A stretch of DNA of 54,807 nucleotides, the filler included, from Diploschistes diacapsis (Eukaryota), in the NCBI GenBank assembly GCA_023645945.1. It is 4 parts of 4 records of this genome, joined end to end, with 100 filler letters (N's around TTAATTAATTAA, not from the genome) between each part and the next. Parts side by side here need not be neighbours in the genome. Positions count along the whole stretch, not along the records: positions 41,204 to 54,807 come from JALAIB010000642.1; 3 more parts are not named here. One strand, 5' to 3'. Below, in pieces: positions 4,077 through 54,807 of this stretch; the first letter of the stretch is position 1, and every line of letters begins with the position of its first letter. The translations under genes and the position numbers were made by a program. The notes under the pieces are model-generated. The model saw nothing but the letters and a program-made list of their open reading frames with translations, made no database searches and was not told the origin of the DNA.

Positions 4077-6009
4077 TCAACCTACCCCCAGCTGCAAAGC
4101 CGCAGTTGACAACAGGGTCGTCAAAACAATGGTGGGTACTGAAGGCTGTAAGAAGCTCCCAGCACTAAAACCCCAAATCTGGCCCGGAATGTTGCACATG
4201 GGCAGCTCACTGTCCATCTGCGCTAAGCCGTAGCTATAGTTGAACCCCTTGCCCGCTGTTGGGCAAGCAAAGCCCAGAGCGGCTGGACATGTTTGAACGA
4301 GACTGTGGCACATGTCTCCGCACGGGAGAAGTTCCTTGTACGGCCCAGGGTTAATGACCTGGTCAATCCATGGATTGCGAGACTGTGCGTACGCTAGGAC
4401 CTCCTGGTTAGAGGCATTGAAGATGGGGTCTGGACTGACGCTTGACGGAACTGTGCCGTTGGTGAAGTTGTAGCTAACGGCGCGTGGTACCAGATATGGT
4501 AACTGCGAAGATATTTCCCGACAGCGTGGGATAGTGACGGCGCAGAGCCACTGCCGGTAGGCGTTCTTGCAGTCTTCACAAGTTACAGCGAGCGAATATT
4601 GGGCATCCGGGGTAGTGTCGCAGGCGATTTGGTCCATGGCGTTGGAGAAATTGGCCCACCAGTTCAAGGCCTGGTTATCGTACCATTGCGTGAGATTGAT
4701 GCCTTGATAGAGCGGATTGTTCGGATTATATGGTACCGCATAGTTGACTTCGTTACAAAAACTCAAGTTGTAGATTACTCGGCAATTGTCCTCTAAATAC
4801 CGTCAGTGGAGCTCTTCGCGAATGCGCAGAAATCCTACCTGATTGCGTGGTGAAATTCATTGCCTTCCATACTGTCCCTCCGCCTCCAGGTTGGCCGGGG
4901 CCAGCAGAGCTGTAGTTGGTAGGCAGTGCCATGACGGCCCAATACGAGGAGCTCTGGTTGAGGCCCGAAACATAGAATTGCTGCTTGATTGCATCGCCAC
5001 CAATCGTTGTGAAGCCCACGTTGACATCAGACTCGTTCTGGCCAGCAAAATTTCCGACAAGTTGGGTATTGTTTTGGAAAGCACAGTAAGAGCTCATCAG
5101 GCCTGTCATCTGAGTATTGTTCTGGTTTCCTACTGCGACTTTGAAGCGGGCTCCCAATTTCTCCCACTCGTCAATTTCAGACGTATCTGTCGAGTTCGGG
5201 TCCGTAAGATTCGATGAAATAAGCATCGCAGTAGTAGCGTCGCTGTCAATATAGTAAAGACTTGGATTGTTTTCAGCTACTGCATAGGCCGCATCAATCG
5301 AACCAGTAAGCTCGAATGAGTATGAGCCGCTGAACCCTGGAGTATCGAGCGCCTGCACCTGTACGTACACGTTGTCAGATGTTGGGTTTGAATAGCTTGC
5401 AAAGCCGTCCGCAACCGGGATGGGTATAGTTCCGGGATGTCCATCTATCGGTTGTGGATCCGTGAAGGATAGAAAGAGCTGCAGTTGTGGGAGGGACTCT
5501 ATGCTCGATCCACTGCTTGGAGAAGGCTGACTGCATACACCCAACGTAAGGTAAAACGGTACGTCGTTCTGACGCTTTCGCAACTCCACATGGTTTTCTC
5601 CCTCGTCTTCTATATCCCGCCTCTTGCTAGCAGGAACGATAGGGGTTGCTGTTGAGGGACTACCATGGAGCACGGAAGAAGGGAAGACGTATCCCAGCAC
5701 TTGGCCAGGTGTGATGGTCGCTTGCGCCGGGACGTTGTTTTGTAAAGTTGTGTCGCTGTCACCACCTTGCCTCCCTAGAATGCTTCGGCTCAACGCAGCA
5801 AATATCGGCTCATACGCGGTAGGAGGATGCCGCTCTTCCGAACCCTCTTTCACCAGCTTGTAACTTACTTCATCGTGGGCTCTTGCGCCAGGCTCAATGT
5901 GGCCTCCAGAAATCACTTGCTCATTGTCAAGAGTCGCTACGGATTGACAATCGAATCCACAAGCCAACATTAGCAAGGAAGCAGCGAAATATCTCGCGAA
6001 CCTAGACAT
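4077..6009 (-). CDS. MID1: Mid1 calcium-influx channel subunit (Cch1 partner); exons 6009-4839 and 4792-4077
   Basis: N-terminal signal peptide and many NxS/T sites. Cys-rich C-terminal domain (NCRVIYNLSFCNEVNYAVP, ACDTTPDAQYSLAVTCEDCKNAYRQWLCAVTIPRC, SRNPWIDQVINPGPYKELLPCGDMCHSLVQTCPAALGFACP). A 46-bp GT-AG intron (4838-4793, branch CTGAC) joins the two ORFs in frame (..TTQSE/DNCR..). Confidence 0.93.
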
Positions 6010-6283
6010 CTCTTCGATCGTAGCTGTTGAAATATATCGACTGGCATCGGAGAGCGGATAAACGAGGTCGCTTCAGCTTCAGAGCTGAGGATCCGAAGCT
6101 AGAGCTGGGATGCGCTGATGCTTGGAATTGGGTATGGTTTGTCCATGAGAAGCTGGTGTGGGATGAACAACACGATCCATCGCTCTGACTTGAGGTAGCC
6201 CGGTTTCAGAGGTTGACATGTGCAATCATGCGTAACAAGTGGAAGGAGGGTCTTTATTCTGGAAGCTGCCAAGCCAAGCTTTA

Positions 6284-13654: not shown

Positions 13655-13754
13655 NNNNNNNNNNNNNNNNNNNNNNNNNNNNNNNNNNNNNNNNNNNNTT
13701 AATTAATTAANNNNNNNNNNNNNNNNNNNNNNNNNNNNNNNNNNNNNNNNNNNN
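13655..13754. other. Artificial contig linker N44-TTAATTAATTAA-N44
   Basis: Exactly 100 bp with a palindromic stop-codon spacer; identical to the other two gaps. Confidence 0.97.
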
Positions 13755-22211: not shown

Positions 22212-24700
22212 AGCAGTTCCAAAAATAGAAGGAGCCACGTGCTGACCGCTTGACCGCTGATCGCTCTGCTCTGCTCTGCGGGGGAATCTTCTCAACGCAG
22301 AATTATTTTCATTAACACACAAAGTATTTTCAGTTTGCTTCCAATGGCCAGCACTTCCGCTTTTAGCACGCTCTTATTAGTAGATAACCCAAGTTGATGG
22401 CAACTAGCCGCATTCTATTCCTCATCTACTTTTGTAAGCTGCCCTAGTCAGTGGTCAGGTGTGAGGAGAGATTTGCTAGTGCTAACACTACACTACCAGT
22501 TGGACCGCGCTGAAGGCTGGATTCGGTCATCATTACGAGCAGGTGCGGGGCACAATTTTTGATATTATCATTATTATCATTATCATTATTATTATTCGAC
22601 AGCTCCTTCGACTTTTCCCCCGCTGTGGTATTATTATGGCTTGCCGAGAAAATGGCAAAATCGCCCGTCAAGTAAATAGGTCGGTAGTCAGCTTCCCCGC
22701 CGATGCCCGCCAGGCCCCGCTCAGCATTCACTCATGGGTCTTAGTTTATCTTGTTCTACGGTTGACAAAAACAATGAGCGACCGCGACGGCGACTTTGAT
22801 GATCCGCACCGACGCACCGTCAACCGACCCATTCCTGGTTACCTAGGTACTTCACGGTGTCTTGGTGGAAAGCAATGGGCGAGGCCGGCCTCAGCCGTGG
22901 AATCGGATGGAAAGATGGGGAGAGGCTGGAAAGGGAAAGGCCGGGGCCCCGGCGGGAGGGTTGCAATGGGATTCTTATGGGATTTGACTACTCGACTAGG
23001 CCAGACAGGAAGTCATCGCTGCCTCGTGGTAAATCCCTGCATGAGGAGAATCTTCGTACTTCTTTGCACGATCCTGATTCCTGATCAGAGATGGGCCCTG
23101 TTCTCGTCAGATCTCTCTGCTAACAGTCCAACAGTCCAACAGTCCCTGCAGTCCTGCAGCGGCATTACTGCGTCGCGCATAACTTTTTTTACATTGTACA
23201 TTGCATACATCTCCAGGCCTAGGTACGAAATTCGGGCATTGTTACAAAACCGGGGGTGCCGCTTCGCTTCCTCAGCCTAATCCGTACGGTGGCTTTGCTT
23301 GCGGCTTGCTTGCTGAGAATTATCCATTTAGGCTCTTGCGCACATGCATACAACACAGCACGACACAATCCGCGCCAAACCAGAGCGTCTACGAGACAAC
23401 AATCTAATATGCGCTGTGGCCGAGTCAGCCAGTCGACTTCTGCTCTCATCTTGACGTCAAGCATGCTTTGCCTTTGGTTATGCACAGCGACTTAGTACTA
23501 CCTGAGCTACTACTACAATTACTTGGTCAAGCCACGACCAGGGTGACACTGCCTATAGGCTATACCTCGGTGGCCTAGATCTATTGCAACTTCTTCTCTA
23601 CTGCCTTGTACTTTGTACTACCACCCTAGTCTCAAACTCCGTATTGCCCAGCTTGTGGCGTCCGACCAGCTGCTGTCACTCGACTTCCTCCTTTCCCTTC
23701 CAAGGTACCCCCGAGACCGAGACGTTCAGAGGAGGCACACCGCGATGGTAACGCACTAACAACTACGTGTAACCACAGGAGCTGGGAATGCTTGGTTCTA
23801 CTCGATTTGGACAGTTACATTCACGCCATTGGTATCCCAGTTACGTAGGTTCAACAGCCACCAAGTCCTTGGCTAGTGCTCCCCGTCTGTTCCCTCTCAG
23901 GCCCATCGCAGTTCGTCCCAAGTGCCAAGTAGATTACTTATGGCCCTTGTCGGAGATCGCCCCCGTCGGTCGACTACCAATCTTTTTTAGACTGACGAAA
24001 CGAAAATCGTGGCCTTTGTCAGCGCCTGTCAATTTCCAGTCCGTTCACCAACTGCCCGTCGTCGTCAACCCAAGCTTTTTAAAGGAACAGCCAACGAAAA
24101 GTCCGTAAGCAGCCCAAGCGGGCTAGGATCTGACTGTGCCTTTGACCACTATCGTCGCTACCATCCCCCAGGTTCCCGAGCTGCGAACGGACCTCTAGGG
24201 GCTGGCTGAAACTACTTATCCCCTACATGGACTATCTATCAGAGTTTGGACGCCAGACAAGCTCCTGGCTGTCCGCTAATCGCTTGGATTCAGTGGACTC
24301 TACTACTACTACTACTACTACTGTAGTAGACCCCCGGTTCGTCAGGCCTTCGCTTGTCTTGAGAGGCTTGCTTCTTTAATATGCCTTATTCCTGTCGCTA
24401 CTACTACTCCTACTACTACTACCACTACTACCACTACTACTACTGCAGCATCATTCAACCCCGTTCAGTGCCTGCATCTACTTTCTGGCCGCTTACACGA
24501 TATCTCTCTCTGCGTTTCATCTCGCTTGTTATTCCTCATGACATGCTTCTCTCAGGCTCGCTCAGTGCCGGCCAGCTGGCTGTCTCCCGAATAGCCTTGT
24601 GAAGGGGGGCTCTTTCTTTCTTCGCTTCAGTTCGCCGGAGCTCCGTCGAGAAAAAGGATCATAGTACCGGTGCGGCCGGAGATCCAAGGTCTCGGAGTCG

Positions 24701-27393: not shown

Positions 27394-27493
27394 NNNNNNN
27401 NNNNNNNNNNNNNNNNNNNNNNNNNNNNNNNNNNNNNTTAATTAATTAANNNNNNNNNNNNNNNNNNNNNNNNNNNNNNNNNNNNNNNNNNNN
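27394..27493. other. Artificial contig linker N44-TTAATTAATTAA-N44
   Basis: Identical 100-bp spacer. Confidence 0.97.
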
Positions 27494-41103: not shown

Positions 41104-41203
41104 NNNNNNNNNNNNNNNNNNNNNNNNNNNNNNNNNNNNNNNNNNNNTTAATTAATTAANNNNNNNNNNNNNNNNNNNNNNNNNNNNNNNNNNNNNNNNN
41201 NNN
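41104..41203. other. Artificial contig linker N44-TTAATTAATTAA-N44
   Basis: Identical 100-bp spacer. Confidence 0.97.
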
Positions 41204-42274: not shown

Positions 42275-42620
42275 TCAGAGAGCCTGGCTAACGGCATTTC
42301 CAATGCCCTCGCCTACGCCTCCCTTGCCGACAAGACCGCCGGCGGTATCTGCGACGCTGTTCTGAAGGTTTTGGAAGTTTTCGTCTCCGACTTCCTGGCT
42401 TTTGATGGTATCTGTATTGTGATCAGTATTTGAGTAACTCTCTGGAGTGCTCCCGAGCTTTACTCTTCAAGCCGTAGGACATGCGGTTGTCCCCCATGGT
42501 TCCCAGCAAAGTGTCCTGAAGCATCTTTTGGTATTTATCAAGGTAGCCAGCGACCCACGCGCCGGCGATGACAACACTCAGGATAGCATAAATGACGGAG
42601 ATAGCAAAGGCGGACGGCAT
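42275..42620 (-). CDS. Small (97 aa) protein with an N-terminal TM helix and Gly-rich tail; exons 42620-42464 and 42411-42275
   Basis: MPSAFAISVIYAILSVVIAGAWVAGYLDKYQKMLQDTLLGTMGDNRMSYGLK/NTIKSQEVGDENFQNLQNSVADTAGGLVGKGGVGEGIGNAVSQAL*. A 52-bp GT-AG intron with CTGAT branch gives an intact frame. Confidence 0.75.
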
Positions 42621-42766
42621 TGTACTGGTGAACAGTATCCAAATATCTACGATAGTTTCAGTTGGAAAACGAAGGATGGGATATGATCACATGGAAGGAC
42701 CAGGATCCTACGTCATTCTTGTAAATAGAACTACTAACGTTAGATAAGTTAATTAAATAATAAAAA

Positions 42767-43031
42767 TGATTTGATTGTGCGAGCTGAAGCTGGATTACCC
42801 TACTTATCTTTATACACACATAAATATAAATATTAATGCACGAATATTGTGCCACAGAACCTAAATCAATAAATGTTACCGAAAAACAACTGGCCGCTTT
42901 AACATTAAACCAGGTTGCCAAGCCTGGAATAAAGAATCTTCGGAGTAGCGACAACAGTGGGAATCGAACCCACAATCTTTCGATCGAAAAGACTTATTAA
43001 TAATCGTTTCACCATTCGACCATGCTGCCAC
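42767..43031 (-). mobile_element. Putative tRNA-derived SINE (265 bp) with 10-bp flanking direct repeats
   Basis: tRNA-like head 43029-42949 with A box TGGTCGAATGG and B box GGTTCGATTCC, an AT-rich body, and a 3' end ..CCAGCTTCAGCTCGCACAATCAAATCA. ATAATAAAAA occurs at 42757-42766 and 43032-43041, exactly bracketing the element. Confidence 0.65.
42949..43029 (-). pseudogene. tRNA-like sequence (class II, Ser/Leu-type) lacking a valid anticodon arm; head of the putative SINE
   Basis: Acceptor stem GGCAGCA/TGTTGTC with discriminator G, D arm GTCG-AATGGTGAAA-CGAT, T arm GTGGG-TTCGATT-CCCAC, and a hairpin TCTTT..AAAGA just before the T arm. The expected anticodon-arm position holds only TATTAATAAG. 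Confidence 0.7.
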
Positions 43032-43576
43032 ATAATAAAAAAAAGGGGCTTTCAACTTTGGTTGCATCAGCCATAGACGAGACAAGCCTTCCCCTTTTGT
43101 ACAATTGAAAGCGACCGGGAGCGCGGGGCAGTTGGCGTACTTTACCCGCCAGGACTGGACTGGGTACAGTATACTACTAGACGGCCTGAGAGAGCCTGAA
43201 AGCCTCAGAGCCTCGTTTCAATCGTCGGCCATCCCAGGACTTTACTTTTCTTAATGCTCTAGTGACTTTAAAAGGTGATTCACAAGCATCAATGCCTTCC
43301 TTCTAGCTGATCGCTCTCTAGACCTCCTGTTCTTGTCGTATTAAGAAGCCAAAGAGCTCATCCCCTACGCGCGCGGCGCATAGCTCACCATAAGATCTTC
43401 CATTTACTTACTCTGCTGTCTGAGCGAAAGCGAAAACCTGGCAATTTAGTTTACTTGGGAATCCACGTTCTTTCCCACTGTGTCCCGTATTTGCTCTCAT
43501 TGCGCGGCAGCGCCCCCCGTTTGCTTAGCAACGAAGACCATTAAGGAGGCAGGGGCACCCGAGGTAACCGTCCATC

Positions 43577-45159
<1,583 letters not shown>

Positions 45160-54397: not shown

Positions 54398-54807
54398 TCT
54401 CTCTCTCTCTCTCTCTCTCTCGCTCTCGCTCTTGCTCATACCACACACATAATCTCTTCTCTTCTCTTCTCTTCTCTTCTCGTCCAGGGGGCTAGCCAGC
54501 ACCGGGGCATCCGTCCATGCCCCGTGCTTGGAAACTTGCCGCAAGATGCCAGATTTCATATATATATCTTATTTTCTATCATGTATCTACCCAAAAAGGA
54601 CCCAACCAACCCCCTTCCGAATCTTTTTTTCTCAAAACGTAGATGAATATTCTCTCGTCTCTCTCTCTCCGACATGGGATCTTTGACGTAGATCTTGGGG
54701 ACGGGGGGGAAAATAAGATAAAAAACCTCGGTGAAAAAGAATAGCTAAGAAAAAGGAAAAAAGGTAGGTAGGTAGGTAGGTAGGTAGGTAGGTGGGCAGG
54801 TAGGTGG
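54398..54807. repeat. Simple-repeat-rich contig end: (CT)n, (TCTCT)n and terminal (GGTA)n
   Basis: Read directly near 54399-54420, 54453-54480 and 54763-54793. Confidence 0.85.

Follow-up and report, generated by a model that had tools for sequence, protein, structure and literature searches.

Short interspersed nuclear elements (SINEs) with a tRNA-related head are known from several filamentous ascomycetes. The system closest to the locus described here is AfuSINE2 of Aspergillus fumigatus Af293 (Kanhayuwa & Coutts 2016, PMC5063351), with AfuSINE2-1a as the nearest member, by description only. According to that paper, the tRNA-related SINEs of A. fumigatus measure 140-493 bp, carry degenerate boxes and target-site duplications (TSDs) of 4-14 bp, and are low in copy. 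AfuSINE2-1a is called tRNA-Arg-derived there, with a 3' part like that of a Tad1-type long interspersed nuclear element (LINE) and an (ACT)n end. The paper also lists MgSINE, Foxy, Egr1/EGH24, nrs1 and SINE2-1_BG, which are likewise tRNA-derived or RNA polymerase III (Pol III)-type short retroposons of filamentous ascomycetes. Here we report on a 265-bp unit, 43031 to 42767 on the minus strand, with a 10-bp direct repeat at either side, in a stretch of 54,807 nt from the lichen-forming fungus Diploschistes diacapsis (the window). We read this unit as an old, decayed copy of a low-copy, tRNA-derived, SINE-like retroposon family in a filamentous ascomycete host, whose sequence was assembled from a lichen metagenome, and assign this reading a probability of roughly 0.55.

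The two systems are alike in living in a filamentous ascomycete, in having a tRNA-related head that has lost the clean cloverleaf and a body unrelated to tRNA, and in their low copy number; the size of the unit and the length of its repeat both fall within the A. fumigatus ranges. Short tandem repeats also close both elements, (ACT)n in AfuSINE2-1a and two AATCA units here. Unlike AfuSINE2, the present unit belongs to another host class, its head still scores as an Rfam tRNA, and a core of about 36-80 nt behind the head is its best-kept part. Copy numbers of tens to hundreds are given for MgSINE, Foxy and the others listed with them; the number here looks lower, at roughly 5-10 core-bearing contigs per sequencing run, which is not a true count. 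A further likeness is to Helenus / TRIMp3 (Kojima 2024, PMC10886601), a short dispersed element in which a tRNA-like part, a Pol III promoter without function, swells the number of predicted tRNA pseudogenes. Helenus has two long terminal repeats (LTRs), a primer-binding site (PBS), a polypurine tract (PPT) and 5-bp TSDs, whereas we find a single unit with a 10-bp repeat in an ascomycete. On these comparisons the element would at most add to a known kind, the low-copy tRNA-related SINE design. Literature listings on lichen transposable elements and fungal tRNA pseudogenes showed no paper on such an element, which is not proof of absence.

On the minus strand the locus runs from the TTTTTATTAT repeat through GT, the tRNA-like head, about 60 nt with a hairpin, a run of five T, an AT-rich stretch with a second hairpin and the tail to TTTTTATTAT again. 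A preliminary description, made from the sequence, had already placed these features, and its coordinates all hold on re-reading: the A box, the B box, both hairpins, a 42-nt 3' end (42808-42767), the tail and the direct repeat each lie where it had put them. The features are as follows.

43032..43041, minus strand: upstream 10-bp direct repeat, TTTTTATTAT (sequence match)
42949..43029, minus strand: tRNA-like head, 81 nt (Rfam RF00005)
43012..43022, minus strand: A-box-like motif TGGTCGAATGG (read from the sequence)
42960..42970, minus strand: B-box motif GGTTCGATTCC, within the T arm (read from the sequence)
42888..42948, minus strand: conserved core, with the hairpin CCAGG-8 nt-CCTGG at 42927-42910 (contig matches)
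42882..42886, minus strand: run of five T, a would-be Pol III terminator in the window copy (read from the sequence)
42818..42881, minus strand: variable AT-rich middle, with the hairpin GCAC-7 nt-GTGC at 42852-42838 (contig depth)
42767..42817, minus strand: tail, its last two units AATCA at 42776-42767 (contig matches; units located by reading)
42757..42766, minus strand: downstream 10-bp direct repeat, abutting the last bases of the tail, ..ATCA (sequence match)

The G+C content of the 265-nt unit is 38.5%, versus 51.1% for the window as a whole, and 40 of 5344 windows of 265 nt match or exceed its AT-richness.

The head matches Rfam RF00005 (tRNA) along model positions 1-71 and scores 35.2 bits, above the gathering score of 29. 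tRNA is the sole Rfam family above its gathering score in the whole window; at E values up to 10, the region 42600-43200 gave 9 further matches, all far under their gathering scores. As first described, the head begins 2 nt (GT, 43031-43030) inside the upstream direct repeat. Its acceptor, D and T stems are clean in the Rfam alignment, the acceptor with two G-U pairs. The anticodon arm has indeed collapsed, with Infernal placing 22 nt where the model has 13 and a longer palindromic stretch in its stead. ARAGORN finds no tRNA at default settings, either in the window or in the region, and no match in its metazoan mitochondrial mode; with introns allowed it returns a forced 'Lys(ttt)', in which a 4-nt intron precedes the anticodon loop and the stem is mispaired. 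We agree with the earlier view that the head, an Rfam tRNA match, is tRNA-derived and carries Pol III boxes, and, given the non-canonical anticodon arm and the absent or forced ARAGORN call, that it is not a working tRNA. A functional nuclear tRNA gene was rejected on the same grounds, there being neither a 5-bp anticodon stem with a 7-nt loop nor a canonical intron position.

The motif TGGTCGAATGG is presumably an A box, judged against what we take to be the Pol III consensus. For the ancestor of the head, tRNA-Arg(UCG) is a candidate, on our assumption of what the anticodon and variable loops of Arg tRNAs look like. An 11-mer identical to GGTTCGATTCC is given as a B' box in PMC5063351. The perfect B box of the window copy might still bind TFIIIC. 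A 19-nt direct repeat of 74% identity, 42841-42859 versus 43017-43035, takes in the first bases of the head (TGTGGCA); the idea of a second head start in the middle, raised by this repeat, was dropped as indistinguishable from chance.

Evidence for a repeat family comes from contigs of four public sequencing runs, matched to 42300-43500 at 80% likeness or more. X1 is treated as the source run: the public run that best matches the window is labelled a lichen metagenome and may be where it comes from. X3 is a rock metagenome, and X2 and X3 represent very close relatives, their flanks ~99% alike to the window. Nine X1 contigs matched, one spanning the whole stretch and 8 partial, and the 7 partial contigs listed all lie within 42888-42973, with 33-63 nt matched and 3-7 mismatches. 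By our estimate, chance falls far short of explaining 45-nt matches with six mismatches in some 115 million letters. The interval 42888-42973, which comprises the T arm, the 3' strand of the acceptor and ~55 nt behind it, is the most repeated piece of the unit, and the X2 contigs (52) and X3 contigs (9) pile up on it too. Below 42888-42899, five of the X1 core contigs run into sequence unlike the window and unlike one another. Summed contig depth in X1 is 90.5 in the flanks and rises to 324 and 441 over 42874-42955, although such sums are not a copy number. Since the depths of the other X1 copies (57-107) resemble that of the locus contig (90.5), these copies probably come from the same organism. 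One of them (record 7) has a similarly non-canonical anticodon region, with a CTTCGAA-like stretch, as read by eye from loose ends, which would suit descent from tRNA-Arg(UCG).

The tail, too, is found elsewhere. One X1 contig matches 42771-42802 and is unlike the window on both sides, and record 18 of X3 matches 42760-42817. X1 depth over the tail bins is 138.7 and 115.7, versus 90.5 for the flanks. Compared by eye, the loose ends of the X1 and X2 tail copies share extra sequence upstream of 42811 to which the window is only loosely similar. The unit is therefore not single copy: the 3' half of the head and the core recur in further contigs of X1, X2 and X3, and the tail recurs separately. 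Of the dispersed copies with shared ends and TSDs of their own that the SINE interpretation had called for, the dispersal is borne out for these two parts, few ends are visible and no other TSD was read. The copies diverge from one another from about 42888 onward. Because three X1 core copies carry TTCTCGG/TTCG at the offset of the window's TTTTTCGG, again read by eye in loose ends, the family seems to extend past 42888, with indels.

Other collections added nothing to this picture. Within the 54.8-kb window, blastn with a word size of 7 found no second copy, returning the self-hit and chance matches of at most 26 nt. A set of metagenome contigs searched with the 19-nt hairpin gave 5 loci, all chance and with no flanking likeness. 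Patterns for the 22-nt tail and the 20-nt hairpin had 0 matches each in a set of genome contigs, which says little because that collection is of prokaryotes only, and two patterns had 0 matches in viral contigs.

Where they are visible, the limits of homology in other copies appear to lie within a few bases of both direct repeats. At the head end, record 15 of X2, a contig that is not orthologous to the locus and matches 42910-43025, seems by eye to retain the GTGGCA start, adjoining the upstream repeat. At the tail end, the window and the X1 tail copy have ..CAATCA(A)TCAT in common, and likeness is lost at 42767/42766, where the downstream repeat begins; the X3 tail copies end at 42760 and 42776 (both by eye). 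Record 15 also contains a 'go-back' joint, from 43025 to 42820 with 10 letters between, which, since 42833-42873 shows no rise in depth, we take for a brief low-complexity match in AT-rich sequence. X2 contigs (records 12 and 14) bridge both boundaries, placing the element at the same site in X2.

The flanking repeat itself is exact. ATAATAAAAA occurs in the whole window, on either strand, only at 42757 and 43032. In 5000 dinucleotide-preserving shuffles, a word of at least 10 nt common to the 31 nt upstream and the 500 nt downstream arose in 3.7% (whole-region) to 5.1% (local) of cases. Direct-repeat pairs of at least 10 nt lying 100-600 nt apart number 47, or roughly 30 by an eye count after merging (CTA)n and (TC)n runs. 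The proposed target-site duplication thus stands as an exact 10-bp flanking repeat, and is weak when taken alone (p ~0.04-0.05).

Between close relatives the element changes faster than its flanks. Within the element, X2 differs from the window by 12 mismatches and 13 gaps over 127 nt and by 8 mismatches and 27 gaps over 206 nt, compared with 1-2 mismatches per 144 nt in the flanks. Three of the X2 indels fall inside the head, at 43006, 43007 and 43018. At 42954, 42929 and 42931 most other copies have C (minus strand) and the window copy has T; C at 42954 and at the presumed second G-U position would give perfect acceptor pairing. Other X1 copies read, by eye in their loose ends, as C/T mixtures at the position of the five-T run, so this run is probably a C-to-T product of the window copy rather than an ancestral terminator. 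Given the internal five-T run, the two weakened acceptor pairs and the extra bases in the anticodon region, the window copy is probably dead. With respect to repeat-induced point mutation (RIP) as a cause of the AT-richness, 3 positions are polarised C-to-T relative to the family majority and none of them is in CpA context. The AT-rich part of the locus is indel-polymorphic among the very close relatives, and X3 contigs skip 149 nt and 79 nt between short direct repeats, CGGTAA/CGTTAG and GGTAA/GGTAA, respectively.

The SINE interpretation is thus partly supported, as a dispersed tRNA-derived repeat family whose visible boundaries agree with the direct repeats. We infer spread by retroposition, as for other tRNA-related SINEs, with a LINE as partner, for which the preliminary description had proposed one of the Tad1 clade. 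Pol III would initiate within the tRNA-like head, using its internal A and B boxes, and the transcript would carry the conserved core and the tail. A LINE reverse transcriptase would then recognise the tail, and the RNA would be copied into a nicked AT-rich target, leaving the target-site duplication.

Several observations weigh against the SINE-like reading. The direct repeat is of low complexity and only marginally unusual. No second full-length copy was read in the window or the run contigs, and contigs matched at 80% likeness or more show the middle (42833-42873) as single copy: its X1 depth equals that of the flanks (90.5), its X2 depth is low (31.7 vs about 100 in the flanks), and in X3 it has zero depth and is skipped by contigs. 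X1 has at least 5 further occurrences of the core and a single further one of the tail (at least 80% likeness), which has at least 255 unlike letters upstream and no core. Because this tail copy lacks a core and core copies are more numerous, joint travel of head and tail in the source genome is only putative; the lone headless tail of X1 is what one would expect of the 3' end of a LINE. One X3 contig does join 42880 straight to 42800, bringing core and tail together with the middle absent; the shorter side of this joint is just 25 letters, and such metagenome joints often involve other organisms or repeats. The boundary and continuation readings come from loose ends of 24-30 letters on the minus strand, compared by eye with no computed alignment. 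A Pfam search of the window's 34 longest reading frames, chosen out of 60 with at least 130 codons after overlapping shorter ones were dropped, revealed no LINE or reverse transcriptase.

The expected empty site was likewise not found among the very close relatives X2 and X3. The X3 contig at the locus keeps the head and core and skips 42734-42882 (CGGTAA to CGTTAG), with ends that do not fall at the direct repeats. Because the X2 and X3 flanks are equally close to the window, the X3 form may equally be a deletion in X3 or the state before a second insertion in the lineage of the window. An old insertion stays compatible with these data, since the relatives examined for an empty site are those with ~99%-alike flanks.

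The rival that survives best is a composite locus: a tRNA-derived unit of Pol III type, ~145-155 nt long and made up of head and core (43031 to about 42880), would sit next to a piece of some unrelated repeat, the tail, and the direct repeat would have arisen by chance in AT-rich DNA. We consider this doubtful, and keep it as a serious rival because of the imbalance between core and tail copies, the single-copy middle, the lack of an empty site and the X3 form. It would account for the 5 or more X1 core copies against 1 tail copy, for that tail copy having no core nearby, and for the fall in between-copy likeness at 42888-42899; the X3 locus contig with head and core but without 42734-42882 could be the state before the second insertion, and a p of only about 0.04-0.05 leaves room for a chance repeat. 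It does not account as readily for the tail end and the head start of a second copy both adjoining the direct repeats, or for the core and tail being joined in one X3 contig. Other copies also seem, by eye, to go on beyond 42888. Moreover, the full arrangement is present in X1 and X2, and with X3 flanks no more distant (~99%) a deletion in X3 is just as likely.

The core raises a further issue. No variant of 10% or more is listed among the copies of the three runs in 42893-42928, a block of ~36 nt within ~80 nt of high likeness that includes the T arm. Conserved central domains are known from the animal CORE, Deu and V SINEs. It is conceivable, though we think it unlikely, that this block holds the family together, which would make the element either the first fungal SINE with a conserved central domain or a selected, tRNA-linked small-RNA module. 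What suggests it is that copies within and between three related lichen-associated fungi keep the block nearly unchanged, whereas their anticodon region and 3' part are decaying.

The same block could be expected if the locus were a degenerating member of a small family, spread by DNA duplication, of Pol III RNA genes that are still in use, each combining a tRNA-like part with a conserved 3' module. The contrast between the invariant block and the varying anticodon region and downstream sequence fits such a family, as does the perfect B box. We nevertheless regard it as improbable: the locus evolves faster than its flanks, X2 has indels inside the head, tRNA is the only Rfam match, and folding does not exceed that of shuffled sequence. 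On the last point, the 'structured body' of the preliminary description did not hold up. The 148 nt from the head to the T run (43029-42882) have a fold z of -1.34, with 24 of 200 shuffles equally good, and the 265-nt unit has a z of -0.60, with 47 of 200 equally good. When the 148-nt head-plus-core RNA is folded at minimum free energy, 11 bp form between its 5' end GCAGC.UGGUCG (43028-43017) and the core end CGGCCAGUUGU (42895-42885), in competition with the acceptor stem; taken as a whole, this fold does no better than shuffled sequence.

A solo LTR of a tRNA-bearing miniature LTR retrotransposon of the Helenus / TRIMp3 type is very unlikely. Read from 43030 to 42767 the unit does start with TG and end with CA, and tRNA-like sequences in LTRs are known in fungi according to PMC10886601. 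However, the 5 bases flanking TG...CA differ (TTATG vs TTTTT) where fungal Helenus makes 5-bp duplications, no second copy and no PBS or PPT arrangement is present in the window, and that source reports fungal Helenus from Pucciniales and a few Agaricomycetes only. Lacking the 5-bp duplication, second LTR, PBS and PPT, and given the host range, the element is excluded from the Helenus family. A miniature inverted-repeat transposable element (MITE) was also considered and rejected, since no terminal inverted repeats mark the unit ends; a 12-nt AT palindrome lying in the flank was the sole inverted repeat.

Finally, a lone tRNA pseudogene or a nuclear mitochondrial insertion (NUMT) in an ordinary AT-rich spacer, which the degenerate head and the one copy in the 54.8-kb window might suggest, has very little probability, because the ~55 nt behind the tRNA-like part recur in many contigs as flanks of unrelated tRNA genes would not, and because the other copies' depth, a poor measure, is nuclear-like (57-107 vs 90.5) with no organelle-like excess.

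The window itself is gene-rich and unremarkable filamentous-ascomycete sequence, with Pfam matches among the 34 reading frames to Mid1, ABC1, Ham1, ECM29, NDT80/PhoG and several protein-kinase domains. A small open reading frame of 65 codons with a hydrophobic N-terminus has its ATG at 42620, and the element sits 137 nt upstream of it, in agreement with the 'about 150 bp' first given. The other distance needs correction: the 'about 550 bp' to the kinase gene is 759 nt from 43041 to the first ATG at 43800, unless an upstream exon exists. This frame has a Pfam Pkinase domain, and its identity as a CaMK is putative. The preliminary description is in this way partly confirmed, the claimed structure and this one distance being its exceptions. 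The Mid1 gene (stretch-activated Ca2+ channel component; 4080-6072, minus strand) extends over two reading frames, presumably split by an intron; counting the kinase next to the element, the window has two genes of calcium-signalling type. Microsatellite-like runs of (CTA)n and (TC)n occupy 24300-24445 and 54398-54670. Runs of 44 N come in three pairs, with 12 bases between the members of each pair, at 13655-13754, 27394-27493 and 41104-41203, spaced ~13.7 kb apart; they probably represent masked or withheld sequence rather than gaps in the assembly.

If confirmed, a tRNA-derived, SINE-like family from a lichen-forming fungus would join the short list of fungal SINEs. Copies of this kind would inflate tRNA-pseudogene calls and mark AT-rich, indel-prone spots in promoters; otherwise, the element would be an ordinary decaying relic of a mobile element.

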